Below, in pieces: positions 1 to 13,313 of a DNA stretch of 64,000 nt. Position 1 is the first letter of the stretch. The number at the start of each line of letters is the position of its first letter. The translations under genes were made by a program, and so were the position numbers. The DNA lies in assembly GCA_963662655.2 (NCBI GenBank), contig CAXXTU010000002.1, forward strand, positions 2,752,001 through 2,816,000. The letters are read 5' to 3'. The notes under the pieces are model-generated. The model was not told where the DNA came from. It worked only from the letters and a program-made list of their open reading frames with translations, and ran no database searches. Origin of the DNA: Candidatus Cloacimonadales bacterium. Lineage in GTDB: Bacteria; Cloacimonadota; Cloacimonadia; Cloacimonadales; JAIOQZ01.

Positions 1-444
1 AAGGCGGCTGTCACCGAAGTCGAAGCGCAAGTCGACGACCTGAAGCAGAAGGCGGAGGAGCCGAAGTCGCTGAAGCTCGACGCGCAAGCCGCGCTGGGCG
101 TCATCCGCGACGTGATGCTGAACCTGTCCTCGCTGAAGTCGGTCATCGATGGGGTGGTGGGTAAGGCGAACGACCTGCTCAACGCATCGCTCAAACAGCG
201 GCAGGCGATCACCCTCACCAACATCGCGTTCGGCGAGCAATCCGAGTCGATGCAGGAGTTTGCGTCGCGCATGCAGTCCGTTACTAACCACGGCGACGAG
301 GAGCTGCTCCCGCTCATGGCCAAGATGCGCCAGACGTTCAAGATGACGACCGAGGAAGTGCAGGCCATCACGCCCTACATCCTCGACTTCGCGGACGCTA
401 ACGCATCCACCGACGTCGAGGCGAAACAAAATAAACGATTATAG
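1..444 (+). pseudogene. Phage tail tape-measure-like protein, 5' end outside window, apparently truncated near 412-420
   Basis: Frame open from base 1 with helical Ala/Gln-rich sequence (ESMQEFASRMQSVTNHGDEELL...ILDFADA). GC-rich codons switch abruptly to AT-rich DNA just before the stop. Confidence 0.55.
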
Positions 445-460
445 AAATGAAATATTAAAC

Positions 461-520
461 TTGACATGGATCATTTGGTTTGATATGGATTTAATAATTA
501 ATCATGACAACATATGGAGG
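461..520 (+). promoter_or_regulatory. Putative sigma70 promoter and RBS of the cargo operon
   Basis: TTGACA at 461-466, weak -10 (TG-A-TATGGA) at 481-489, GGAGG at 516-520 before ATG 525. Confidence 0.4.
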
Positions 521-524
521 AATC

Positions 525-1391
525 ATGAGGCATTTTCTTCTCGCTATCGTGTTAATGGCTTGCAGCCTGCTTACAGCCGAAACCTGGATATACGAAAAGA
601 CTGTCGTCAAGCTTCCCATGGGGGAAGAAGACGGGCAATTGAGTGTAAGGTATATGGACAACATGCACGAAGGCCCTACGAGCTTTACAATCGATGAAGA
701 TGAAAATATCTATGTTAAAACAAGGAGAAAAAACATCATCAAGAAATTCGATAAAAACGGAAACTTTATCTGTGCGTCAAAATACGAAAAGGGTGCCGGT
801 GATGTCGTTCGATTCATTGGCTACCATGACGGTTACATTTACACGATGAGTGGAGACTTGCGCGTTGTGTGTCTGCGCAGATACACTCGTGATCTCGATT
901 TACATGACTTTCATCTGATACAAGCACAACCCAATACATTCTATGGCAGAAGTTTCATAGAGAGTAATTCGGGAGATTTTGGATTACTTAGAGGCAGTAA
1001 TCCCAAAGCAATTAGCGCAAGCAAATTGGTTCTACAGAATAACGTATACCATTTTCACAAAATGGAGTTATTCGATTCTTCCTACAAGCCAGTTGAACTA
1101 CAATCTGTATGGTCATCAGAAATCGGCCATCGCTTCATGGATTATGACACTTCAGGAAATTTATACTTTGAGAGATACATTCCTCACGAAGCAAACGATA
1201 TGGGCATCATTGATTCAAAGGGCTATTTCATTTCTACGAATGTGATATTCGAATCGAACAAGGAACATCATATTGCATTCATGGACAGCATCTATCCGAT
1301 TGTGCTGAAAAATGGTATCGTATATAATCTACTTGTCACGGAAGAAAGAATCGAACTCATCCGGTGGTATAAGACAGGAGAAGAAAAATGA
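525..1391 (+). CDS. Secreted hypothetical protein, NHL/beta-propeller-like
   Basis: Signal peptide MRHFLLAIVLMACSLLTA; GPTSFTIDEDENIYV...IKKFDKNGNFI repeat-like motif; RBS at 516-520. Confidence 0.6.
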   Translation: MRHFLLAIVLMACSLLTAETWIYEKTVVKLPMGEEDGQLSVRYMDNMHEGPTSFTIDEDENIYVKTRRKNIIKKFDKNGNFICASKYEKGAGDVVRFIGYHDGYIYTMSGDLRVVCLRRYTRDLDLHDFHLIQAQPNTFYGRSFIESNSGDFGLLRGSNPKAISASKLVLQNNVYHFHKMELFDSSYKPVELQSVWSSEIGHRFMDYDTSGNLYFERYIPHEANDMGIIDSKGYFISTNVIFESNKEHHIAFMDSIYPIVLKNGIVYNLLVTEERIELIRWYKTGEEK

Positions 1392-3226
1392 AAGCATTAT
1401 GGTCTATGGCTTTACTGCTTGCTGTGATTAGTATTTCTGCTGTAAACTTGGAACTTGCTGAACAATATCGTGATTTTGAGTGGACGGTTTTCCGGGCAAA
1501 CATTGATAGCCATCATGAACCCATTGGACGTGAACTCTATGGCTATACCGATGCCCATCCTTGTGACTGGGTGGACAGTATCGGGGCAATAATAACCGGA
1601 ATGCCCTATCATTATGGAGGAAAAGACACATTTGCACAATGGAACCGGGATTACGGACATAATAGTTTTGGGCCCGGAGCCCATAGCGCTCATCACTCGG
1701 ATTCAACCACCTGTTCAACATCCTGGGCAGCAGGCATTGACTGTTCAGGATTGGTTGGAAGATGTTGGGGAATTTCCGAGGCTTTAATGCCCAATTGCGG
1801 ATGCGGGTATTTAACTTCCATCTCAACTGAAATAACTAATCAGCAAATACAACCTGGTGATGCTTTTATCAGGACAGCATATGAAAGACACGCACGTTTG
1901 TGTTACGCGAGAATAGAAGAAGGTCTTAATTATCAGTGGGTTGAAGTTATTGAGGCAGCTTCAGGTGATTATAATAAGGTGGTTCTACTTCAATATACTA
2001 TCGAAGACATGATAGATCATGACTTCAGATGCTACTCCCACTCTAATCCCACCAACATCGCATCAGGCTCTGTATCCGGTACGTGGACGCTCGAAGACGG
2101 CCCATACTTGATCGGTGGCGATATCCAGGTCGATATGACATCGACACTGAGCATCGAGGCCGGCGTCAACGTCATCTTCACCGGGCACTACAAGTTCACC
2201 GTATATGGTCAATTGCTCGCGCTGGGCACCGAGGATATGAACATCTTTTTCACCGCGGAAAACACGACCGCCGGCTGGGGCGGACTGCGGTTCATCAACA
2301 ACAACACCAATGAATTCGAACAATCCCGGCTGGCACACTGCAAAATAGAATATGGAAACGCTCAGGGAGACTGGCCCGACAATGTGGGCGGGGGAATTTT
2401 ATGCCAGTATTCCAATACGATCATCGACACCTGCGTTGTCGCGAACAACCGTGCGGTCGCGGGTGGCGGCATCTACCTGAATCATTCCAACCCCGAGATC
2501 TATTACACGCTGATATCGGAGAATCACGCTCAGGAATTCGGTGGCGGAATCGCAGCCTACGACAACTGCATGTTCTTCCTCATGAACAACACGATTGTCG
2601 ATAATGTTGTGGATGTGTCAGGCAATGTAGGTGGTGGTATCTTCTGCGATATGTCCTGCTGGGCTTACATTGTAAATACGATCGTATGGGGCAATACGTC
2701 CTATCAGGTGTATCTGTTTTACGATAGAGATTATACGATCAATTATTGTAACATAGAGGATGCCGTATTTCTGGGTGATGGAAATTTCTCGAGCGATCCA
2801 CTGTTCAACGGATCGGACCCCACTCGCTACGAGCTAACGAGCAATTCGCCCTGTATCGACACCGGGCATCCCAATTATAGCGATTCGGACGGTACAAGAA
2901 GAGATGTCGGCGCTTTTCCGTATTTCCAGGTACCGGAGCCACCGGACGTAACGATCAGCATACAGAACAATCAGGTGAGTCTCGCCTGCGGAAGCGCGTC
3001 TCGCAATAGTTATGTTGTCTATTCGTCGGACGATCCGGAAGGGACTTTTGCAGAGGACGAGACAGGATCGTTCAACGGAAATATATGGACTGCGTCACTT
3101 GCAGGAAGCAAACGATTCTATTACGTCACAACTGTGACCGGCAGTCGAAATAATGTCGAGAATATGGAAACGATTCCGCTTAGAGAGCTTACTGAAAGGC
3201 ACAAACGACTTATGTTAAAACACTGA
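1388..3226 (+). CDS. Secreted modular protein: NlpC/P60-like cysteine hydrolase + right-handed beta-helix + C-terminal FN3-like domain
   Basis: Signal peptide; GMPYHYGG...AGIDCSGLV...H catalytic-type motif; GGGI repeats; DPLF...LTSNSPCIDTG...RDVGAFPY; overlaps upstream gene (ATGA). Confidence 0.7.
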   Translation: MKALWSMALLLAVISISAVNLELAEQYRDFEWTVFRANIDSHHEPIGRELYGYTDAHPCDWVDSIGAIITGMPYHYGGKDTFAQWNRDYGHNSFGPGAHSAHHSDSTTCSTSWAAGIDCSGLVGRCWGISEALMPNCGCGYLTSISTEITNQQIQPGDAFIRTAYERHARLCYARIEEGLNYQWVEVIEAASGDYNKVVLLQYTIEDMIDHDFRCYSHSNPTNIASGSVSGTWTLEDGPYLIGGDIQVDMTSTLSIEAGVNVIFTGHYKFTVYGQLLALGTEDMNIFFTAENTTAGWGGLRFINNNTNEFEQSRLAHCKIEYGNAQGDWPDNVGGGILCQYSNTIIDTCVVANNRAVAGGGIYLNHSNPEIYYTLISENHAQEFGGGIAAYDNCMFFLMNNTIVDNVVDVSGNVGGGIFCDMSCWAYIVNTIVWGNTSYQVYLFYDRDYTINYCNIEDAVFLGDGNFSSDPLFNGSDPTRYELTSNSPCIDTGHPNYSDSDGTRRDVGAFPYFQVPEPPDVTISIQNNQVSLACGSASRNSYVVYSSDDPEGTFAEDETGSFNGNIWTASLAGSKRFYYVTTVTGSRNNVENMETIPLRELTERHKRLMLKH

Positions 3227-4179
3227 TTCGCAGCCCTTTCAATTTCCTTTTCGACCTGCAAATCCTGCGTCTCGACTGGCTGCGCATGGTGCGCAAATTC
3301 CGCCAGTGGAACGGGCAACTCGCCTGCAACTGCGGCTTCCGCTACGCTCCTATGTTCAGCGGCGATTACGTCCCCGAGTTCCGCCTGCTCTTCTACTGCG
3401 AGCACGTCATCGAGGGCAACATCCAGTGCAAGGTGTACGCGCGCAAGTTCCGCTTCTACAACGCGATCTGCCGGATCGAGGACGGCGACGCCGAGATCGA
3501 CGAGAAGTCCGAAATCTACAGCACGACGCAGTATTCCGAGATGCTCGCTTGGCGCGACGAACTGTGCGCGGAGTACGTTCCGTTCGAACCGTGGGCTTCG
3601 GCGCGGACATTCCACCACAACGGCAACACCTATAGTATAGGAATAGAGGACGCTGATCTGGACGCGACCACCGCGCCGGAATACAAGTGCGTCGCCTACA
3701 CGGGCAACGCGATTCCGGCGAACCTATATCCGAAGGGCTTCTACGAGAGCGAGAACGAGCCGCTGGAGAAGCTCAAGGCCCTGAAAGCCGCGCTGCTCTT
3801 GCACAACCTGACCATCGTCTCGCTGCCCGGCGGCACGCTGCGGCTGGTGAACAAGGACGACGCCAGCAATACAGTTACCACCATCGACTCCGCCGACATC
3901 ATCGAGTTCAAGCGGAAGCGGCTCAATCGTTCGCGGCCCGACACCTCCGTCCTGGACTGTCTCGTGGGAAACACGACCAACCTGAAAGCCCTCATCGCCG
4001 ACTACTACGAGACGCTGTTTTGTCAGACGTGGAGCCTCGAAGCGACCGTCGACAACCTCGCCAAATACGACCTTGCGCTGTTCGACAAGCTCTTGATCGA
4101 GGGCGTGCAGTACCGCATCACCGAGTTGCAGCGCGACCCGAAGGCGGACGAATACAAGCTGAAGGCGTGGGAGGTCTGA
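3227..4179 (+). CDS. Phage tail-associated protein, probably 5'-truncated
   Basis: GC-rich phage-type codons resume near 3230 and the frame is open upstream of ATG 3286 without an RBS. C-terminus LFDKLLIEGVQYRITELQRD...YKLKAWE is tail-protein-like. Confidence 0.5.
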
Positions 4180-4628
4180 TGCTGTGCTACGACGGCTTTC
4201 GCATCATCTCCATCGCGGGTGGCGCGTACTCCGGGTTCGTGGTCGAGAGCGGCGTGATCGACTACCAACCGCAACGCAAGTTTCGCGTTGAGAAGCAGTG
4301 CGTCTTCGACCCGACGATCCTCATCCGCCGCGAGCCGTACAACGAGGACAGCATCGAGTGCGAGGCGTATCTTCCAGCGAATCAGTACGATGAGCTGTAC
4401 ACCATCCTGAGTGACGCTGACCAGCTCTACATCGAGTTCGACGCAGGCTCCGGCACGCTACAGTTCCCGGTCATCATCGATAAACTGCCCAAGCTCGTGG
4501 ACGACGCCCGGTCGCACAGAAGCCGCATAAAATTCACGCTCACCAGCATCTACAAACAGCTTTCGCCCATCGACTTCGACAGCGTGTTCGGCTACGGCAA
4601 CGGCTGGGGCGATTGCTGGGGATTTTAG
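4179..4628 (+). CDS. Phage hypothetical protein (tail module)
   Basis: TGATG coupling with upstream gene; 149 aa, MLCYDGFRII...GYGNGWGDCWGF. Confidence 0.65.
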   Translation: MLCYDGFRIISIAGGAYSGFVVESGVIDYQPQRKFRVEKQCVFDPTILIRREPYNEDSIECEAYLPANQYDELYTILSDADQLYIEFDAGSGTLQFPVIIDKLPKLVDDARSHRSRIKFTLTSIYKQLSPIDFDSVFGYGNGWGDCWGF

Positions 4629-4636
4629 GAGGACGC

Positions 4637-5611
4637 ATGCCCGAAACCACCAATTTCAACCTCTACAAGCCCCTCGCCGGTGAGTCCGGATGGGCCGCTG
4701 CGCTCAACGGCAACTTCGATACCATCGACGCGCTGCTCTACTCCCATCAGACCAGCATCGACGGTCACACCGGTACAGGCTCGAACAAGCACAACGCAGA
4801 GCAGATCCGCACCTCGGATGGCTCGGACGTGCAGTCCGCACTGGTGGCGAAAGCGAGCCTGCACCACTCGCATCAGGCCGAGGAAATCATCCTGCCCGAT
4901 AGCCAAGATTTGGGGCATCACATCGCGAGTATCAACGACGATATACAAAGTCTTGAAACAACGAAGGCTGCATTGCGGCACACACATCAATCGGATGACA
5001 TTCACTTTCCTGATGGCCGCGAGCTTGGGCAGCATATCGACAGCATCGACGACGACATAGATGCACTCCAGACCGGCAAGGCGGACGTCGAGCATGAGCA
5101 CGTTGAGTATGCCCTACAAACCGCCCTGGATACGGTTGAGAACACGCTCGATCTGTTGTTGCCCGACCTCGGTTCCGTCTCGCTGGGCGTGGACGTCGTC
5201 AACCGCAGCGGCGGCATCCGTATCCTGTTCAACACGACGCCTGCGGTGCACTTTTCGCAGGCTGAAATCCTCATCGAGAAAGACGGCGTGGAGGTGCATC
5301 ACGAGACGGTTCTGAGCACGTCCGTGTTCATCACGGGGAGCGAGCTGAGCGGCGTCGAGAACGGGGACGTACTCAACATCTCGGTAACCCTCTACAGCGG
5401 CCTCAGCTCGAAAATCAAGAAAGTCGACCACACCTACGCAACCACAACTTCACCGCTCGAGGAGCGCATCGAGACCATCGAAACGCAACTCACCCTCGGC
5501 AACATCATCGACGCTTTCGCACAGGACGAGGACGCACTGCAAGCCCTCGCCAACGTGCTACATTCCTCGAACACGCTGGCGCAGAAGGTCTCGGAGCTGA
5601 TGCAGACGTGA
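4637..5611 (+). CDS. Phage tail-fibre-like protein with HxH repeats
   Basis: RBS AGGAGG; N-terminus TTNFNLYKP...LNGNFDTIDA; KAxxxHxH motifs every 38 aa (4850, 4964, 5078). Confidence 0.65.
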   Translation: MPETTNFNLYKPLAGESGWAAALNGNFDTIDALLYSHQTSIDGHTGTGSNKHNAEQIRTSDGSDVQSALVAKASLHHSHQAEEIILPDSQDLGHHIASINDDIQSLETTKAALRHTHQSDDIHFPDGRELGQHIDSIDDDIDALQTGKADVEHEHVEYALQTALDTVENTLDLLLPDLGSVSLGVDVVNRSGGIRILFNTTPAVHFSQAEILIEKDGVEVHHETVLSTSVFITGSELSGVENGDVLNISVTLYSGLSSKIKKVDHTYATTTSPLEERIETIETQLTLGNIIDAFAQDEDALQALANVLHSSNTLAQKVSELMQT

Positions 5612-5850
5612 GCACGATTCGCCAGAACAGCGTGTGGGATCTGCTGAACCGCAAGACGAAGCCGACGGTCTCGACCGACCGCGATATCGCCTTCGTCAAG
5701 ACCATCTATTCCACCGTTGACGAGAAGGAAGATCTCGGCATCCACGACGAGAATCTCGTGCTGAGCGGCACGGATTTCCCGCCGGACGCGAAGCTAGGGC
5801 AGGTATTCATCAAGAACGGTAAACCATATATCTACAAGGAGAACGAATGA
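5608..5850 (+). CDS. Phage hypothetical protein
   Basis: GTGA overlap with upstream gene, 80 aa, same codon style. Confidence 0.6.
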   Translation: MSTIRQNSVWDLLNRKTKPTVSTDRDIAFVKTIYSTVDEKEDLGIHDENLVLSGTDFPPDAKLGQVFIKNGKPYIYKENE

Positions 5851-6005
5851 CGCAAACCGAACTCTACCAGACTACGAAACTGGAGCTAACTCACGAGTAC
5901 GAGCGGCTCCAGAGACTCATCCATGAATCGCGCGAGAAGCTGCTCAAGACCGAAGGTGCGCTGCTGCTGCTCGGTCGGCTCGAACGTGAAGCGAAGGGGG
6001 CGTAA
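5847..6005 (+). CDS. Small coiled-coil phage protein (52 aa, missing from the ORF track)
   Basis: ATGA overlap upstream, TAATG overlap downstream, RBS AAGGAG; MTQTELYQTTKLELTHEYERLQRLIHESREKLLKTEGALLLLGRLEREAKGA. Confidence 0.6.
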   Translation: MTQTELYQTTKLELTHEYERLQRLIHESREKLLKTEGALLLLGRLEREAKGA

Positions 6006-6481
6006 TGGCAGGCACATGGCAGGAAATCCTCGACTCCGGGCAACTCGGCGTCGCCAACGGCATCGCGCAGCTCGACAAGTCCGGCAAGCTGATCACCGAG
6101 CAGATCCCGCAGATCGAGCCGGGTAACATCACGGGCGTCCTCGAAGCGAGCCAGATCCCCGACCTCGACGCTTCCAAGATCACCACCGGCGTCTTCGTCG
6201 TGGATCGCGTACCCGACCTTGACGCCGCCAAGATCGCGACCGGCGCTCTCGCCACCGACCGCATCCCGACCCTCGCACAGAGCAAGATCACAGGCCTAAC
6301 TACAGCTCTCGCGGCCAAGGTCGAGACCCGCACCAAGATCAACGGCCACGCGCTGGAAGGAGATATCAAGCTCGAGACCACAGACATCATCGAGGAGGTC
6401 ACTGAGCTTCCAGAAGAGGGCGTCATCGGTGAGGTCGTGGCATACGGCGGGAAGCTGTACGTGTGGAGTGGTGATAAGTAG
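6005..6481 (+). CDS. Phage fibre-repeat protein
   Basis: NGIAQLDKSGK motif and ~18-aa IPDLDASKITTG repeats typical of tail fibres. Confidence 0.65.
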   Translation: MAGTWQEILDSGQLGVANGIAQLDKSGKLITEQIPQIEPGNITGVLEASQIPDLDASKITTGVFVVDRVPDLDAAKIATGALATDRIPTLAQSKITGLTTALAAKVETRTKINGHALEGDIKLETTDIIEEVTELPEEGVIGEVVAYGGKLYVWSGDK

Positions 6482-6497
6482 GATTATCGAGCATCGC

Positions 6498-6531
6498 AGG
6501 CCTGGGTCGAGAGATTCAGGCCTTTCTATTT
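6498..6531 (+). terminator. Rho-independent terminator of the tail operon
   Basis: AGGCCTGGGTC-GAGA-GATTCAGGCCT followed by TTCTATTT. Confidence 0.6.
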
Positions 6532-6557
6532 GCCTTGATTTCAGGACAATAGCTTCA

Positions 6558-6981
6558 TTTGTGCCAGCATGTTTTCCTTAAGGAAAAACTGCCGTCACTT
6601 GCAGTTTGACTGTAACTTGCCGATTGAAGAGAAGATAGCTGGTATTCGCATGAATGACATTCTGCTTTCTAAACCACTGCAACAACTGGAAAACGGCTCG
6701 AAACGATGGAAAAATTGCCGTCACTGGAAGGAAAGACTGCCGTCACTTGCAACTTGGGAAAGTGACTACATGAATGTGTTTGATGGTGCGGGAGATAAGG
6801 GCATTTCCTGTCACTTCGACTTGTTGCACGATGGAAAACATGCTGTCACAAAGTGGAAAATGAAGGTGTCACTTTACATAAGGAAAACATGCTGTCACAA
6901 AGTGGAAAATGAAGGTGTCACTTTACAAGTGGAAAATGAAGGTGTCACTTTACAACTTTACATTTACACAGTCATTTTACA
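6558..6981. repeat. Array of ~22-bp GGAAAA-N(6-8)-GTCAC motifs including tandem duplications
   Basis: GTCAC cores at 6594, 6720, 6742, 6810, 6845, 6868, 6894, 6917, 6944 and GTCAT at 6971. 6833-6878 is identical to 6882-6927; inverted copies at 6558-6580 and ~6760. Confidence 0.85.
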
Positions 6982-7013
6982 GCATTGCAGATAAACGATC
7001 TATAAGATAAAAG

Positions 7014-7090
7014 TGGTGGGTGATACTGGATTCGAACCAGTGACCTCATCGATGTGAACGATGCGCGCTAACCAGCTGTGCCAATCACCC
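7014..7090 (-). tRNA. tRNA-Val (CAC)
   Basis: 77-nt cloverleaf, anticodon arm CATCG-TT-CAC-AT-CGATG, GGTTCGAATCC T-loop, encoded CCA; one A-C mismatch in the D-stem. Confidence 0.95.
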
Positions 7091-7122: not shown

Positions 7123-7199
7123 TGGTGGGTGATACTAGATTCGAACTAGTGACCCCTTCGATGTCAACGAAGTACTCTAACCAACTGAGCTAATCACCC
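7123..7199 (-). tRNA. tRNA-Val (GAC)
   Basis: 77-nt cloverleaf, anticodon arm CTTCG-TT-GAC-AT-CGAAG, encoded CCA. Confidence 0.95.
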
Positions 7200-7322: not shown

Positions 7323-8363
7323 TCAATAGTTTAGCGGAAGCGCGACCTTGTTGCCTGTCTTGGCCGACATATAGATCGCATGGATAATTTCCAGCGACTT
7401 TCGTCCATCTCTACCGTCGGTATGCGGCTTGGTATTCCCCAGGAGGGTGTCGATCACATTCTTGTAATACGGGATATGCCCAAATCCGTATACGTTCGGC
7501 GGTTGGTAATTCGTCTCCGTTACGATACGATCGTCGTCGTCATAGGACTCGAATTCCCACTTTTCGATCTTGTTGACCGCCATTCCGCCGATTTTGACGG
7601 AACCTTTTTCACCGAGGATCGTGATAGAGCCTTCGAAGTTCTTGGGGTAGGTGAGCATGGTTACGTTGATGTTACCAATGACACCGTTGCGGAACTTCAA
7701 GATGGCGCAGCCGGTATCCTCCGTCTCGATCTTCCTCGCCATCGTCGCGGTCTCAGCCAGCACATGATCGACTTCGCCGATCAGCCAGTGAAGCGCGTCC
7801 ACATAGTGACTTGCCTGATTCATGAACGCGCCGCCGTCAAACTCCCAGGTTCCGCGCCAGCTTGCCAGATCGTAATACTCTTGAGGCCTTTGCCAGAACA
7901 CGTTCGATTGAGCAAGGTAGATTCTCCCGAAGCGCTCCTTGTCGATAGCCCTCTTCAGGAGTTGCATAGTCGTATTGAGACGGTTTTGTTTAACCACGAA
8001 AAGCATGACTCGATTCTGGTCGCACGCCTTCACCAAGTCATCCGCTTCGCTCAGCCGTATTGCCATGGGTTTTTCCGTTATCACATGAATTCCACGATTC
8101 GCGGCCTCTATGCCAATTTCAGGATGAATCCCGCTTGGCGTACAGATGATAACCGCATCCGGTTTCTCTTTATCGAGCATCTCGAGGTAATTGGTGTAAT
8201 AGCTATTTACTCCATACTTCTCAGAAGCCTCTCTCGCTCTTTCTTCAACATTGTCCGCACAAGAAACGATGGTTGCATTATCCAGCTGTTTCATCGATTC
8301 AAAATGGTTTCTGGAGATTCTCCCACATCCAATCAGCGCAAATCGTATCCGTTCCATCGTCAT
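7323..8363 (-). CDS. Gfo/Idh/MocA oxidoreductase, WbpB/WlbA-like UDP-GlcNAcA 3-dehydrogenase
   Basis: GCGRIS Rossmann motif, EKPMA, VKQNRLN, DGGAFMNQASHYVD. Confidence 0.85.
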   Translation of the reverse strand: MTMERIRFALIGCGRISRNHFESMKQLDNATIVSCADNVEERAREASEKYGVNSYYTNYLEMLDKEKPDAVIICTPSGIHPEIGIEAANRGIHVITEKPMAIRLSEADDLVKACDQNRVMLFVVKQNRLNTTMQLLKRAIDKERFGRIYLAQSNVFWQRPQEYYDLASWRGTWEFDGGAFMNQASHYVDALHWLIGEVDHVLAETATMARKIETEDTGCAILKFRNGVIGNINVTMLTYPKNFEGSITILGEKGSVKIGGMAVNKIEKWEFESYDDDDRIVTETNYQPPNVYGFGHIPYYKNVIDTLLGNTKPHTDGRDGRKSLEIIHAIYMSAKTGNKVALPLNY

Positions 8364-8377
8364 TCCTCCAAAGTGAG

Positions 8378-9259
8378 TTACTCAACCCATTCCAGCAAGG
8401 AATAAAGGTACTGGCCATACTGGTTGTTTTTCATTTCCTCAGCTCTAATTTTTAGCTGTTCTCGCGTTATAAATTTCTGCCTGAATGCGATCTCTTCAAG
8501 ACACCCGATCTTGAGATATTGCCGCTCTTCATAAGCCCTGATAAACACCGATGCATCGGCTAAAGACTCGTGCGTTCCGGTGTCCAGCCATGCATATCCC
8601 CTACCGAGAATCTCGACGCTGAGCTTTTCCTGCCTCAGGTATTCTTTGTTCACATCCGTGATTTCCAGCTCGTTACGATTGGAAGGTTTTATATTTTTCG
8701 CAACTTCAATTACGCTGTTCGGGTAGTAGTACAAGCCAACAACCGCGTAATTCGATTTAGGTTTTTCCGGCTTCTCCTCAATCCCCAAAACCTTCTTGTC
8801 CTTGTCGAAATGAACCACGCCATAACGTTGCGGTTTGCTAACCCAGTAACCGAAAACTACGGACATTTTCTCATTTTCAACCGTCGTAACGGCATTATGA
8901 AGGAAGTCGACAAGCTTGTTCCCATAGAAGATGTTGTCGCCAAGAATCAAGCAGACATCATCGTCGCCAATGAAATCCTCACCGATGAGAAACGCCTGGG
9001 CGATGCCCTCCGGTTTGGGTTGCTCCTTGTAATTGAGATTGATGCCGAAATCGCTTCCATCTCCCAGAAGCCTTTGAAACATCGGTAGATCATCCGGGGT
9101 TGAAATAATGAGAATCTCCCTGATCCCGGACAGCATCAAGACGGATAAGGGGTAATATATCATCGGCTTATCGTGAACAGGGAGCAATTGCTTGCTCACT
9201 GCTTTCGTTGCCGGATAAAGCCTGGTTCCACTTCCACCTGCGAGGACTATTCCCTTCAT
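8378..9259 (-). CDS. rfbA: Glucose-1-phosphate thymidylyltransferase
   Basis: [47 protein letters not shown] before 9259. Confidence 0.95.
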
Positions 9260-9464
9260 AACCACCTCCATAGGGTTGATAACTTCTCCCACTCATAGAT
9301 TAACAGGTTAAAACTTGTGTCCAGATTTTTCTTGGGAATTCGTCCACGAACCTGATTATTACACTTTTAGCCAGAGCAATTTTCGTTCTCAATCGCTTGT
9401 TTTTTCCCTTGACAGTCAAGCATTGAAATCAATTCTGCGTTGAGGAAATCTGAAAAGGACAGGT

Positions 9465-10739
9465 ATGTACGCAAGTAGCAGATACATTAAACTGAATTCG
9501 AAACTGGATTATGCCCTGGTATACTGGGTTGCATTATTCCCACTCGTAAATATGATTATATATTACGCTACGGGGAAGTTGTTTCCCATTTTCTTCATTC
9601 CTTTTCTTTTCATACTTGTTATACTTGCAATCATTCAATCCGCCTTGTCAAACAAAGTCATCCACATGCCTCCATATCTCATTCTATTCGGACTATTTGC
9701 TTTATATCGCACACTCTGGTTATTTAATTTCTATATTATTGGAACCTACCAATCAAATTGGGACTTCATCTTTATATTGATTCGAGATCGCTTCTTGAAG
9801 TCTTTCCTTTTGCTCTTGCTAATGGAAAACATCTTTCTTAGCGATCATGAGCTAAAAAAAGTTATTTATCTTATAATCATTATTATTGGATGTGGATTAT
9901 TCTATTCAACACTGCAGATTGTCTATGGATATTCTTTTCTTAATCCATTTGCAGCATATAAAAACCTAGATGTTGCTGATTTCTCAATTAGATCTCAATC
10001 AATTTTTGTCTGGGCAAATGCTCAAGAACTCGGAATGAGCGTTCCGATGCTTTTGGCATTAATCCTTCCATTTCTTGAGAAGCGAAAGTTTCTTCGATTG
10101 TTCACAATCATCAGTTCGGGTATTATAATATTCCTTAACATGAGCCGTTACATGCAGTTAACCTTTACCGTCGTTTTATTAACATACCCACTAACATACA
10201 AAAAACACAGGGCAAGAGAAACCATATACAATACCTTCATTATCCTTATCTTGCTTACGAGCCTTATTGCAGTCACATCTGTTACAGTGCTTTCAAAAGA
10301 CAGTCTTATAAATAGGCTTACTTCCGATTCATATCGCTCAAGATTGCTAGCAGTTGAGCTTTTTAAGAAATTTATAGGTGAAAATCTGATTTTTGGAACT
10401 GGCGGAGTTAATACTTATGACCTGGTTAGAGAATTGGATGGAAGAAGTTCTCATATTCATGTTGGCTGGCTTTCCATTTTTTATTATTATGGACTTCTTG
10501 GCGGCTTGTTATACATTTCATCGTTTATTCTCTTAATTCGAGATACTTACAAATTAGGCAAAAAGAATTCCTATTGGGGGGCAACCATTGCCCTTTTAAC
10601 ATTTGCCATTGCTAATATGACAGGTACTAGCTTATATCTTGATTTTATCGGTTTTTCAATTCTAGTATTGATTAAAAATTTCATTATTCAACACCCTCAA
10701 CCAGAAACTCCAACTTACATCAACAAGGAATACGCATGA
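9465..10739 (+). CDS. O-antigen polymerase/ligase (Wzy/WaaL-like) membrane protein
   Basis: About 10-11 hydrophobic segments; IFGTGG...HIHVGWL...YGLLG motif; low GC. Confidence 0.7.
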   Translation: MYASSRYIKLNSKLDYALVYWVALFPLVNMIIYYATGKLFPIFFIPFLFILVILAIIQSALSNKVIHMPPYLILFGLFALYRTLWLFNFYIIGTYQSNWDFIFILIRDRFLKSFLLLLLMENIFLSDHELKKVIYLIIIIIGCGLFYSTLQIVYGYSFLNPFAAYKNLDVADFSIRSQSIFVWANAQELGMSVPMLLALILPFLEKRKFLRLFTIISSGIIIFLNMSRYMQLTFTVVLLTYPLTYKKHRARETIYNTFIILILLTSLIAVTSVTVLSKDSLINRLTSDSYRSRLLAVELFKKFIGENLIFGTGGVNTYDLVRELDGRSSHIHVGWLSIFYYYGLLGGLLYISSFILLIRDTYKLGKKNSYWGATIALLTFAIANMTGTSLYLDFIGFSILVLIKNFIIQHPQPETPTYINKEYA

Positions 10740-12010
10740 GAGTGCTTGTGTTGTATGATGGTTTGACAAGAGAAGCCCAAAAGGCATTTGGTGCAAAAGG
10801 TAAGATAAACACTTGGATCGATGGAATGGAGACTGCTTTTCATAAATTGACCAGCGACAATGTCAGTTTCGGTTTTGCATCTATTCACGGTATCCCTGGT
10901 AAAACAGTAACAAGTGGGCGATTCTCATATATAGGTTCGCTTGACAAGGCTGATATCAAAAAAGGCCTTTACCGAAGAAAATATGAAAAAGCACTTCAAT
11001 TGTATCAGGAGAGTTATCGCAAAGTAGTTAAAGAATTCAATCCCGACGTGATCCATGTTTCCGGCTCGGAACATCCCTATGTTTTTGTGTGTTCTGAATT
11101 TCCAGAGATAACAATCATCTCTATTCAGGGGATTCGCGCCGTAACCCAGTATTATTCCGACAGATATTCCGAAGAATTGGCAAAACAAGAAAGCCTTAAT
11201 AGCTCTCCAATAAAAACGATTATAAAAAAAGCATTGTATGGAGAAAATATTCACTGGCTTTCAGAGTATGAAACGAATCACATCAAGAACGCGAAGTACA
11301 TTAACACGCAGAACGAATACTCCACAATGTATTTCTCCATGCTCAATCCTGACGCTACATACTTACAGTTCGAGAAAATCATCCGCAAAGAATTCTATAA
11401 TTCTGAGTGGAATCCTGTTAATGTTTCTCTCAATCGTGTTTTCACAATTATTTCAAATCAAGTGTCTTACAAAGGTTATGACACGCTTGTGAACACAATT
11501 ATACAGCTTCATAAAACAGGTAATAGAGAGATTACGTTCAATATTGGCGGTGTCAGAAGCGATTCCCCCATTGGCAAAATAATACTGAAGCGACTTAGAT
11601 CAAATGGGATTCCAATCGCCTCTATTAATTTCCTGGGATATCTTAATACCGAGCAAGTGGTTATGCACTTGCAAAACACTTCGGTTTTTGCTCTCTTCTC
11701 ACACATTGAGAACACACCAAACACATTGAAAGAAGCCCAGATGATGGGAGTGCCATGTGTTGCGCCTTATGTTGGTGGAGTTTCTTCACTTCTACAGGAC
11801 AGAAAAGAAGGTTTGATTTTTCAAGATACGAATTTCTATTCTGCCGCTTCTATGATTCTCTGGCTTTTACGTCATCCCAGGCAGGCGATTGAATATGGTA
11901 GAAATGCACGAAAAAGACGCCTTGAAGATAATAATCCCGAAAAAATAACCGAACAAATTATAAGAGCCTATCACACAATATATGAAAGCAATAGAAACAA
12001 AAAGCAATAA
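10736..12010 (+). CDS. Glycosyltransferase family 4
   Basis: PDVIHV, ENTPNTLKEAQMMGVPCVAPYVGG (EX7E motif). Confidence 0.85.
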   Translation: MRVLVLYDGLTREAQKAFGAKGKINTWIDGMETAFHKLTSDNVSFGFASIHGIPGKTVTSGRFSYIGSLDKADIKKGLYRRKYEKALQLYQESYRKVVKEFNPDVIHVSGSEHPYVFVCSEFPEITIISIQGIRAVTQYYSDRYSEELAKQESLNSSPIKTIIKKALYGENIHWLSEYETNHIKNAKYINTQNEYSTMYFSMLNPDATYLQFEKIIRKEFYNSEWNPVNVSLNRVFTIISNQVSYKGYDTLVNTIIQLHKTGNREITFNIGGVRSDSPIGKIILKRLRSNGIPIASINFLGYLNTEQVVMHLQNTSVFALFSHIENTPNTLKEAQMMGVPCVAPYVGGVSSLLQDRKEGLIFQDTNFYSAASMILWLLRHPRQAIEYGRNARKRRLEDNNPEKITEQIIRAYHTIYESNRNKKQ

Positions 12011-13313
12011 AAATATCTTACATTTTATTCCAAAAAACGCGTGGCTGAAAGTTAAAAAAAGACTTAGAGACAACTTCAAGAATACTTTATTAAGCTATTC
12101 TGCAGTTATTATTCAAATTGCTATAGGCATTTTCACAGCTCCCATCTTCGCGCAAAACCTATCGCCGACAGATTATTCCATCGTTAGTTATTATAACTCG
12201 CTTGTGCTTTTCCTTTACCCAGTTTTACATCTTTCATTTGGAAACTATTATAGCGTGATGTTTCACAAGAAAAGCGAAGAAGAAAGAAAACGTCTCTTGT
12301 TCAATCTTGTCGTTTTCCTCTCTGTATTTGACATTGTCTTACTTGTTATCAGCTATTACATTTTTGTTCTATATTTCAATGTAGCCCATGTCAGCTTCGA
12401 CCTGACGCCTTACATTTTTATTGTACTTGCTCAAATTTACTTCTTTGTCTGGTTTGTCTTTCAGCAGACCCATTATCGAATGAAACGCGAATTTTTGAAG
12501 TACTTTTTAATTACTACTTTGAAAAACGTCTCATCCATAGGATCTGCCTTGGTTCTCGTAGCATTATATAAGATGGGAGCTACGGGACGCCTGTTGGGAG
12601 GAACAATTGGTACTTTTCTTGCCGGCGTTGTTTCAATCAGCCTTTTACGAAGTAAAATGCAGCCTACATTTGACTTTCAGATTATTAAAGACGCTCTGAA
12701 ATTCTGTGGGCCACTAATTTTGAGTGGGCTGGTCATTATTCCCTTCAGAGCTTTGGACGGAATTCTACTTGAGAAAAAGCACGACGTAGATTCGTTCAGC
12801 TTATACAGTATTGGCAAGAACCATGCGAACTATATATACGTTTTTGGAACATCCATATATCAGGCTTTTGAAACAGAGCTCTTCCTGAACATACATAATA
12901 AAGCAAGAAAGCAAATGTACATAAACATGTTCATCATGTCGGTGCTATTACTTGCGCCAACAGCCTTATATATTATCTTTGCAAAACCTATAGCAAACTA
13001 TCTCACCAGCGGACGCTACGTCGATGCGTATTATTACGGCAGAATTCACGCGATCGGATTCTTCTTTGTGAATGTGAGCGTGTTCATTCGCACCGTTGTA
13101 ATGGGGAAACAAAAGAGTTCAATGTACTTCTTCATCAACCTGACCGGAGCCCTTGCAAGCATTGTGCTCTACAATATAATGATTACTTTTTTCGGTTTCA
13201 CCGGCGCAGCTATTACGCGTTCCCTCGTACCGATCACAATGATCATGTTTGTTGTAATATATTATATGATCAAATGGAAGAAGGCTAAATCGAAATCCAA
13301 ACGTCCAGTTTAA
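11982..13313 (+). CDS. Polysaccharide flippase (Wzx-like)
   Basis: About 12 TM segments; LSPTDYS and FGFTGAAI motifs; start uncertain. Confidence 0.75.
   Translation: MKAIETKSNKNILHFIPKNAWLKVKKRLRDNFKNTLLSYSAVIIQIAIGIFTAPIFAQNLSPTDYSIVSYYNSLVLFLYPVLHLSFGNYYSVMFHKKSEEERKRLLFNLVVFLSVFDIVLLVISYYIFVLYFNVAHVSFDLTPYIFIVLAQIYFFVWFVFQQTHYRMKREFLKYFLITTLKNVSSIGSALVLVALYKMGATGRLLGGTIGTFLAGVVSISLLRSKMQPTFDFQIIKDALKFCGPLILSGLVIIPFRALDGILLEKKHDVDSFSLYSIGKNHANYIYVFGTSIYQAFETELFLNIHNKARKQMYINMFIMSVLLLAPTALYIIFAKPIANYLTSGRYVDAYYYGRIHAIGFFFVNVSVFIRTVVMGKQKSSMYFFINLTGALASIVLYNIMITFFGFTGAAITRSLVPITMIMFVVIYYMIKWKKAKSKSKRPV

Follow-up and report, generated by a model that had tools for sequence, protein, structure and literature searches.

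A repeat array behind tRNA-Val is the right end of a Mu-like prophage whose relatives are often found facing tRNA genes

An array of co-oriented repeats behind a tRNA-Val(CAC) gene of a Cloacimonadales genome raises two questions: what kind of element ends there, and does its position reflect a choice of target? The DNA that was analyzed (the window) is a stretch of 64,000 nucleotides, G000:C2:2752001-2816000, from the 3.8-Mb genome G000. An initial annotation had read the array as a Tn7-like end capping a phage tail module, with integrase arm sites or iterons as alternatives. The locus is laid out as follows, R denoting the right end of the element.

7123..7199, minus strand: tRNA-Val(GAC), upstream partner of tRNA-Val(CAC)
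7014..7090, minus strand: tRNA-Val(CAC), intact, last gene of the Val(GAC)-Val(CAC) pair and the landmark faced by the R end
6982..7013, minus strand: 32 bp of host spacer, from the CCA end of the tRNA to the outermost stub
6879..6981, minus strand: six nested stubs of older R ends, every one starting at the terminal TG
6558..6878, minus strand: complete R end, with its terminal TGT at 6878
6498..6533, plus strand: terminator-like hairpin past the last phage gene (consensus scan only; 0.9 expected by chance)

The tRNA, the spacer, the TGT at 6981 and the co-oriented array were all present as claimed: TGTAAAATGACT at 6981 is separated from tRNA-Val(CAC) by exactly 32 bp (7013-6982), and the spacings of the outer sites (27, 27, 23, 26 and 23 bp) agree as well. 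The array has eight strong co-oriented sites, with starts at 6951, 6924, 6901, 6875, 6852, 6749, 6727 and 6601. Of three other sites, the one at 6814 is weak, that at ~6978 is partial and that at 6558 is inverted. The repeats inside the complete R end are those at 6875, 6852, 6814 (weak), 6749, 6727 and 6601, with the inverted copy at 6558. A site pattern built from the array matched nine times in 6500-7013 and 25 times in the whole genome; 2000 dinucleotide shuffles gave a mean of 0.001 matches and a maximum of 1. Upstream of the tRNA pair, window positions 7323-13313 hold low-GC host genes of the polysaccharide-synthesis type (oxidoreductase, nucleotidyltransferase, membrane and glycosyltransferase-like ORFs).

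The array forms the right end of a 34.9-kb transposable prophage of the Mu-like kind, which measures 34,853 bp from its left (L) end to the complete R end and comprises the following features.

G000:C2:2723874-2724025: older R-end remnant abutting the L end
G000:C2:2724026: L end
G000:C2:2724441-2725244, minus strand: CI-type repressor
G000:C2:2725242-2725284: two operator-like sites with the same motif as the ends, between repressor and ner
G000:C2:2725529-2727619: MuA, 696-aa DDE transposase
G000:C2:2727629-2728351: MuB, 240-aa AAA+ ATPase
G000:C2:2728361-2728870: tandem winged-helix protein, 169 aa, directly after MuB
G000:C2:2728880-2729479: DUF3164, followed by a small HTH gene
G000:C2:2730316-2748478: terminases, Mu-F-like gene, endolysin, portal, protease/capsid
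Window 1..6878, plus strand: part of the prophage inside the window, the remainder lying to its left on G000:C2
Window 1..444, plus strand: truncated tape-measure-like gene, 167 aa, starting at G000:C2:2751941, 60 bp left of the window
Window 504..3226, plus strand: two non-phage cargo genes (295 aa; 612 aa, beta-helix) that stand in for most of the tape-measure gene
Window 3286..5850, plus strand: remaining late ORFs (297, 149, 332 and 80 aa), of which the 297-, 332- and 80-aa ORFs also occur in sibling prophages
Window 6005..6481, plus strand: last phage gene, minor tail/tail-fibre-like, 158 aa

Inverted termini with repeated transposase sites, L at C2:2724026 and R at window position 6878, enclose the early genes in the order repressor, ner-like ORF (named by position; it has no family match), MuA and MuB, and then the head and tail genes. 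Tail genes do lie directly inside the array, as had been noted, the last ORF matching PHROG minor-tail/tail-fibre families (E 4e-6 to 8e-4). MuA matched Mu-transpos_C (E 1e-18) and phrog_310 (E 2e-92), and MuB matched AAA_22 and phrog_296 (E 2e-25). By tblastn, the nearest phage matches to the transposase are only 22-33% identical (HS6, phiRTG5, BalMu-1, KS10, Mushu). The likeness to ShCAST noticed earlier has a basis: in a PDB sequence search with the transposase, TnsB proteins were the only matches (E 4e-8), and the ShCAST end primers contain tgtacagtgac. MuB matched ShTnsC at E 1e-4 with a profile, a distant likeness only. Judged by sequence, the array repeats are putative binding sites of the prophage's TnsB-like MuA. 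The same R end was found again at tRNA-Pro(GGG) of G000 and in relatives, and a homologous transposase occurs in 80 of 203 genomes of the order; G000 itself carries several other Mu-like prophages. The initial annotation was thus right about a DDE-transposase element with virion genes at a tRNA, which is a Mu-like prophage rather than the suggested Tn7-like element with tail cargo.

The G000 copy is tail-defective. Its MuA and MuB genes are open and its tape-measure gene is truncated to 167 aa, compared with 887 aa in a sibling copy that is 99% identical over residues 1-157; a helper would therefore be needed for virions. Further cargo lies on the minus strand of the prophage at G000:C2:2733722-2743727, namely a 1583-aa WD40-repeat protein and a methylase and helicase pair resembling a type III restriction system.

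Could the array instead consist of integrase attachment arm sites or plasmid iterons? Its position beside a tRNA 3' end and the AT-rich spacer would suit such sites. The search left of the window found MuA/MuB genes and no nearby tyrosine integrase, the nearest being more than 600 kb from the element; a search of the 69 kb to the left found no second copy of any 12-mer from the tRNA 3' part; and the L end and the cI-ner sites of the MuA/MuB module share the motif. Arm sites are excluded for this element by the distance of the integrases and the unduplicated tRNA 3' part, and iterons (or a host array) by the linkage to the transposase and by tRNA-Val loci that are empty in other families (see below). 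We find this explanation scarcely credible. Selectors of other kinds were also sought. TniQ/TnsD gave no match in the 98.95% complete genome, in a search whose controls fell below the cut-off, and TnsA gave none in a search whose control likewise failed to score. Scans of the early operon with Pfam, PHROG and NCBIfam returned no TniQ or integrase-core selector, and general family scans of the element proteins returned no Cas family.

Position 6981, which had been taken for the present terminus, is the outermost of the six stubs, and the complete end begins at 6878. The stubs occupy 6971-6981 (11 nt, 1 mismatch), 6969-6970 (2 nt), 6963-6968 (6 nt), 6955-6962 (8 nt), 6928-6954 (27 nt) and 6879-6927 (49 nt). 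The 49-nt stub has two differences from the resident end and matches an R-end allele of G003 exactly; thus, it was not copied from the present end. Slippage was rejected as the origin of the stubs, since each of the six has the terminal TG as its first bases and the longest one (49 nt) is a different allele. Comparable nests are present at tRNA-Val in G001, G002 and G006, and also at tRNA-Pro and tRNA-Arg. In G003, head-to-tail tandems were found, with L ends 2 bp from, or within, older R ends. From these arrangements we infer that elements inserted one after another into a single short zone, and that recombination and deletion came later.

Several further sites of this kind were observed. A second nest of the same end lies 50 bp behind tRNA-Pro(GGG) (G000:C2:311498-312683). 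A doubled R end of a different family lies 7 bp behind tRNA-Arg(CCG) (G000:C2:344725), and its element appears to be split between C2:345-366 kb and 1307-1317 kb. Stubs starting with TGTGAAG, the terminus of a promoter-type family described below, occur within the tRNA-Val nests of G006 (L009) and G002 (L039). The 6.7-7-kb tRNA-Val elements of G001 (L036:110-6835) and G002 (L039:12570-19662) have both ends and lack intact phage genes; they encode a GTP-diphosphokinase-domain protein, a presumably NUDIX-like protein (judged by its motif) and an ATPase/TPR protein. These elements are cargo derivatives, possibly with a defensive role. G000 also contains 21 IS3-type termini, many of them inside or truncating Mu-like prophages and their ends.

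A 5-bp target duplication was present in four of the eight tRNA-side elements with both ends mapped. Clean copies flank the elements of G031 (76 bp from tRNA-Asn), G134 (712 bp), G022 (234 bp from tRNA-Lys) and G036 (46 bp from tRNA-Pro; a 1.4-kb mini-element), and a 5-bp duplication was found twice in G009. It is absent at G000, G001, G002 and G007, all four of which are nested sites. The left ends of the G003 Arg element and of the G026 element were looked for and not located. At the G000 copy, the history of serial insertion, recombination and deletion would explain why no duplication survives. A reciprocal end flanked by GCATT had been predicted; a genome-wide search found none preceded by that sequence. 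The L flank of the G000 copy, GTCAC, has no exact match among the R junction flanks and is one base off the outermost stub junction; the two make at most a putative target duplication.

To what extent do such ends lie beside tRNA genes elsewhere? The terminal pattern was run over 232 genomes of the phylum, and all 57 matches were examined. Nine without a second site were set aside as chance matches and four as left-end type; the remaining 44 represent 37 sites. At 20 of the 37, the R end lies at most 250 bp downstream of the 3' end of a co-oriented tRNA or tmRNA gene (at most 100 bp in 17), and two more lie further downstream, at 712 and 767 bp. An oppositely oriented tRNA or tmRNA gene within 250 bp was found at none of the 37. 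The expectation is 0.8% of intergenic positions. Among the controls, no L end was at a tRNA (0/27, one with only 106 bp of flank), nor was any chance match near one (0/9), and the IS3-type termini of G000 gave 1/21. With orthologous loci collapsed by hand, 10 of 25 were tRNA-side (p about 4e-15, with kin not independent).

A wider second pattern, covering 38 regions and one G000 site and with the type of each end sorted by end sequence, placed four of six new ends of this type at tRNA genes (Pro, 48 bp; Asp, 87 bp; His, 53 bp; Lys, 73 bp). Including two G003 tandem junctions, the joint tally is 24 tRNA-side R ends of 45. Found outside the census were tRNA-side ends in G022 (Lys, 234 bp), G006 (Val, 40 bp) and L109 (Pro, 184 bp), and non-tRNA ends in L064, L104 and L108. 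L109 came from a scan of viral contigs (27 matches; no other end among the matches listed), and L104 and L108, neither at a tRNA, were the two clear ends from a metagenome scan (5 matches).

The R sites without a tRNA within 250 bp, 17 of the 37, are varied. Besides the two at 712 and 767 bp, they include three sites in G031 that are 2.2, 9.6 and 14.5 kb downstream of a co-oriented tRNA or tmRNA gene, with what we take to be intron-like sequence in between at the 2.2-kb site. The remaining 12 are inside the ends of other Mu-like elements, beside IS elements, at a CRISPR leader, or landmark-free. At L037:7673 (G001), an A-type R end lies ~190 bp from a CRISPR-like repeat array, apparently on its leader side. 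Two left ends, L136:3579 and L140:4458, from two genera, precede the 5' end of the same tRNA cluster by 518 and 207 bp; our model does not explain them.

The initial suggestion of tRNA targeting therefore needs to be reworded: the lineage does sit downstream of tRNA genes in one orientation, but it is not specific for tRNA-Val and keeps no single distance. Eleven different RNA genes are represented, at 7-234 bp from the 3' end, mostly 30-90 bp. tRNA-Val(CAC) is occupied in four of four genomes of this family in which it was found (32, 41, 36 and 40 bp) and empty in eight of eight genomes of other families; no empty site was found within the genus, and the Val pair was not found in G003. E-type ends are at tRNA-Arg(CCG/CCT) at all four of their sites, and A-type ends are at Val(CAC) or Pro. 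Over their final 32 nt, the tRNA-Arg CCG and CCT genes each have the other as closest match (26/32, median 19).

All census data concern resident insertions, on contigs, on which selection acts. Public sequencing runs, likewise examined as contigs and with small-share runs left aside, revealed no fresh insertion sites. One might thus suppose that insertion is random, as in Mu, and that copies survive where they are harmless, behind tRNA genes. The trailers of tRNA genes are indeed known island sites, and only resident copies are in the data. This supposition predicts both orientations, yet R ends were tRNA-side at 20/37 and L ends at 0/27 (Fisher p about 1e-6); it also fits poorly with the IS3-type termini (1/21) and with Mu-like ends of the promoter type (0/11; see below). 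We consider retention alone to be very improbable.

The sister clades point to a second kind of landmark. In a quick MuA tree, two groups carry the tRNA label and two further groups the non-tRNA one. Ten mapped R ends (8 loci) of the non-tRNA groups face a -35-like hexamer from about 33-56 bp upstream; the hexamer is TTGAC(A/T) at seven of the eight promoter-type loci, where ~3-5% would be expected by chance. In a second set of promoter-type ends, none of 11 was at a tRNA and TTGACA lay 40-89 bp outside in 8 of 11. The promoter-type ends are G000:C2:10342, L222, L225, L227, L229, L262, L266, L069, L210, L213, L273, L274, L277, L285 and L288-L290. Sister-clade R ends were also observed to be promoter-facing, ~33-70 bp upstream of TTGACA-like -35 boxes, and some have nested stubs and 5-bp duplications.

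Two further explanations bear on this behavior. In the first, no dedicated selector exists, and MuB/MuA favor the DNA state found downstream of stable-RNA genes that are highly transcribed (RNA polymerase at termination, supercoiling, a bent AT-rich trailer) or, in the sister clades, the DNA just upstream of promoter-bound polymerase. The broad distances, the 11 different RNA genes and the R end facing the transcription unit in both clade types would all follow; in addition, Mu of E. coli is reported to insert in pre-tRNA leaders and trailers, with MuB helping in transcribed regions (PMC7350765). However, sub-lineages keep to certain tRNAs (E type to Arg, 4/4; A type to Val(CAC) or Pro), and strict orientation is not easily given by a generic DNA state. 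We regard such capture as possible, although rather doubtful. In the second, the transposase targets DNA beside sites that are already bound, such that one early tRNA insertion seeds a nest and others follow. At its core the site reads (G/T)TGACA, which comes close to a -35 box, and promoter-type clades land near TTGACA; nested stubs, L-R junctions of 2 bp and A-type ends inside the ends of other families also argue for such attraction. It leaves unexplained the first insertions at 11 RNA genes in several families, including single ones with an intact duplication (G031, G022, G036). As a full account it is unlikely; it may operate in addition to landmark targeting.

The best reading of these data, and in our judgment a likely one, is landmark-directed insertion by the MuA/MuB of a Mu-like prophage lineage. 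The Mu-type ends, the duplication size and the bias in landmark and orientation are all seen in the resident copies; that the bias reflects active targeting we hold to be quite likely. In the proposed mechanism, the R end would be joined downstream of the 3' end of a tRNA or tmRNA gene, always facing it, with a 5-bp duplication. A target that is offset from the tRNA would leave that gene intact, allowing later elements to strike the same zone, within or beside the resident R end. The nested stubs at 6879-6981, and the loss of the original duplication, would then result from recombination between tandem copies and from deletion driven by IS elements.

What could choose the target? The candidate is the tandem winged-helix protein. 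Almost every copy in which that region is intact has its gene behind MuB, frequently as a fusion to DUF3164; we give even chances to this protein making the choice. It would bind the landmark, or RNA polymerase located at it, and would load the MuB ATPase in the way that TniQ loads TnsC, and sister clades would use the same parts for landing upstream of -35 boxes. The model of the protein has a pLDDT of 91.9. A predicted complex with MuB, with contact via the conserved first helix (residues 7-15), scored 0.61, compared with 0.00 for the best of three controls; the mark for such scores is reached by 116/157 solved and 2/215 mismatched pairs, counts that hold roughly here, where our own alignments were used. 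The runs showed at least 74% contact agreement and a partner pLDDT of at least 83. This predicted complex supports binding between MuB and the winged-helix protein. Fold searches with the model returned generic winged-helix matches only, with no TniQ listed; the SelB, RPC62 and TFIIIC rows, being such generic matches, were not taken as evidence. Proteins P0007 and P0010 consist of 4-9 repeats of a winged-helix unit related to the first domain of the candidate.

Clades of both the tRNA type and the promoter type have the winged-helix gene, whose tree is broadly like those of MuA and MuB; a grouping by target independent of MuA/MuB, which would indicate selector swapping, was not seen in that tree. 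The fidelity of sub-lineages (E type at Arg) favors some sequence recognition, and the broad distances favor a transcription-linked component. A wider proposal, which we offer tentatively and hold less firmly than the role of the candidate itself, is that Mu-like phages of Cloacimonadota carry a TniQ-independent, protein-only selection module, in which a winged-helix adaptor on MuB would be tuned, clade by clade, for landing either downstream of tRNA/tmRNA genes or upstream of the -35 box of sigma-70 promoters; in every case it would set which end faces the landmark and override target immunity.

Mu is the textbook near-random transposable phage, and offset, oriented insertion is credited to TniQ/TnsD of the Tn7 type or to Cas modules. 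According to a genome-scale survey, integration of transposase-dependent proviruses into RNA genes is rare (PMC13626063); offset insertions just downstream of such genes would probably escape counts of this kind. What the present analysis adds is the set of controls, the sister clades that target promoters and the candidate for the adaptor. Oriented homing by a phage in which no TniQ was detected, together with promoter-aiming sister clades, amounts to a natural swap experiment on the steering of an AAA+ regulator, and suggests a compact three-gene system for placing 35 kb of DNA at safe sites. Homing to the side of tRNA genes may also explain the build-up of cargo islands there in Cloacimonadota.

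How does the prophage compare with known systems? Like Mu and Mu-like phages, it has a repressor-ner-A-B early operon, a Mu-F head gene, TG/TA termini with repeated transposase sites and, in its intact relatives, a 5-bp duplication. Unlike Mu, its lineage shows a strong landmark and orientation bias rather than near-random targets with cis-immunity, and the PDB search places its transposase nearer TnsB than MuA. The lineage also inserts into, or 2 bp from, resident ends; Mu is described as avoiding about 1.5-5 kb around its own ends (PMC7350765), and insertions into or next to resident ends thus conflict with Mu cis-immunity. Our literature search found no description of tRNA-homing Mu-like phages; the nearest case is phiA, a Mu-like phage of Citromicrobium with integration confined to a 40-bp zone and a 5-bp duplication (PMC12486242). 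It resembles the present lineage in being Mu-like with a restricted zone, but, as described there, that zone is one protein-coding gene and not many tRNA genes, and no selector is proposed. Mu elements with CRISPR modules receive mention in PMC11656645.

TnGBS/p-MULT are DDE elements that insert upstream of sigma-A promoters in one orientation, as the sister clades do here; they differ in having a Mutator-family transposase and in being ICEs and ISs rather than phages, and the abstract names no AAA+ regulator (PMC3942029). Among Tn7-like elements reported to home to tRNA genes, PmcCAST I-B2 and McCAST I-D do so via TnsD and V-K CASTs via crRNA (PMC11406308, PMC10293859, PMC11837452). On the accounts in these sources, the prophage shares with them an offset insertion downstream of an intact tRNA, control of orientation, a TnsB/TnsC-like core and a similar start of the end. 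It differs in its full phage gene set, in a distance that is not fixed (the broad distances of the lineage are also unlike TnsD) and in that no TniQ, TnsD or TnsA was found, in searches with weak controls. In its behavior the prophage resembles a tRNA-homing Tn7-like element; by gene content, it is a Mu-like phage.
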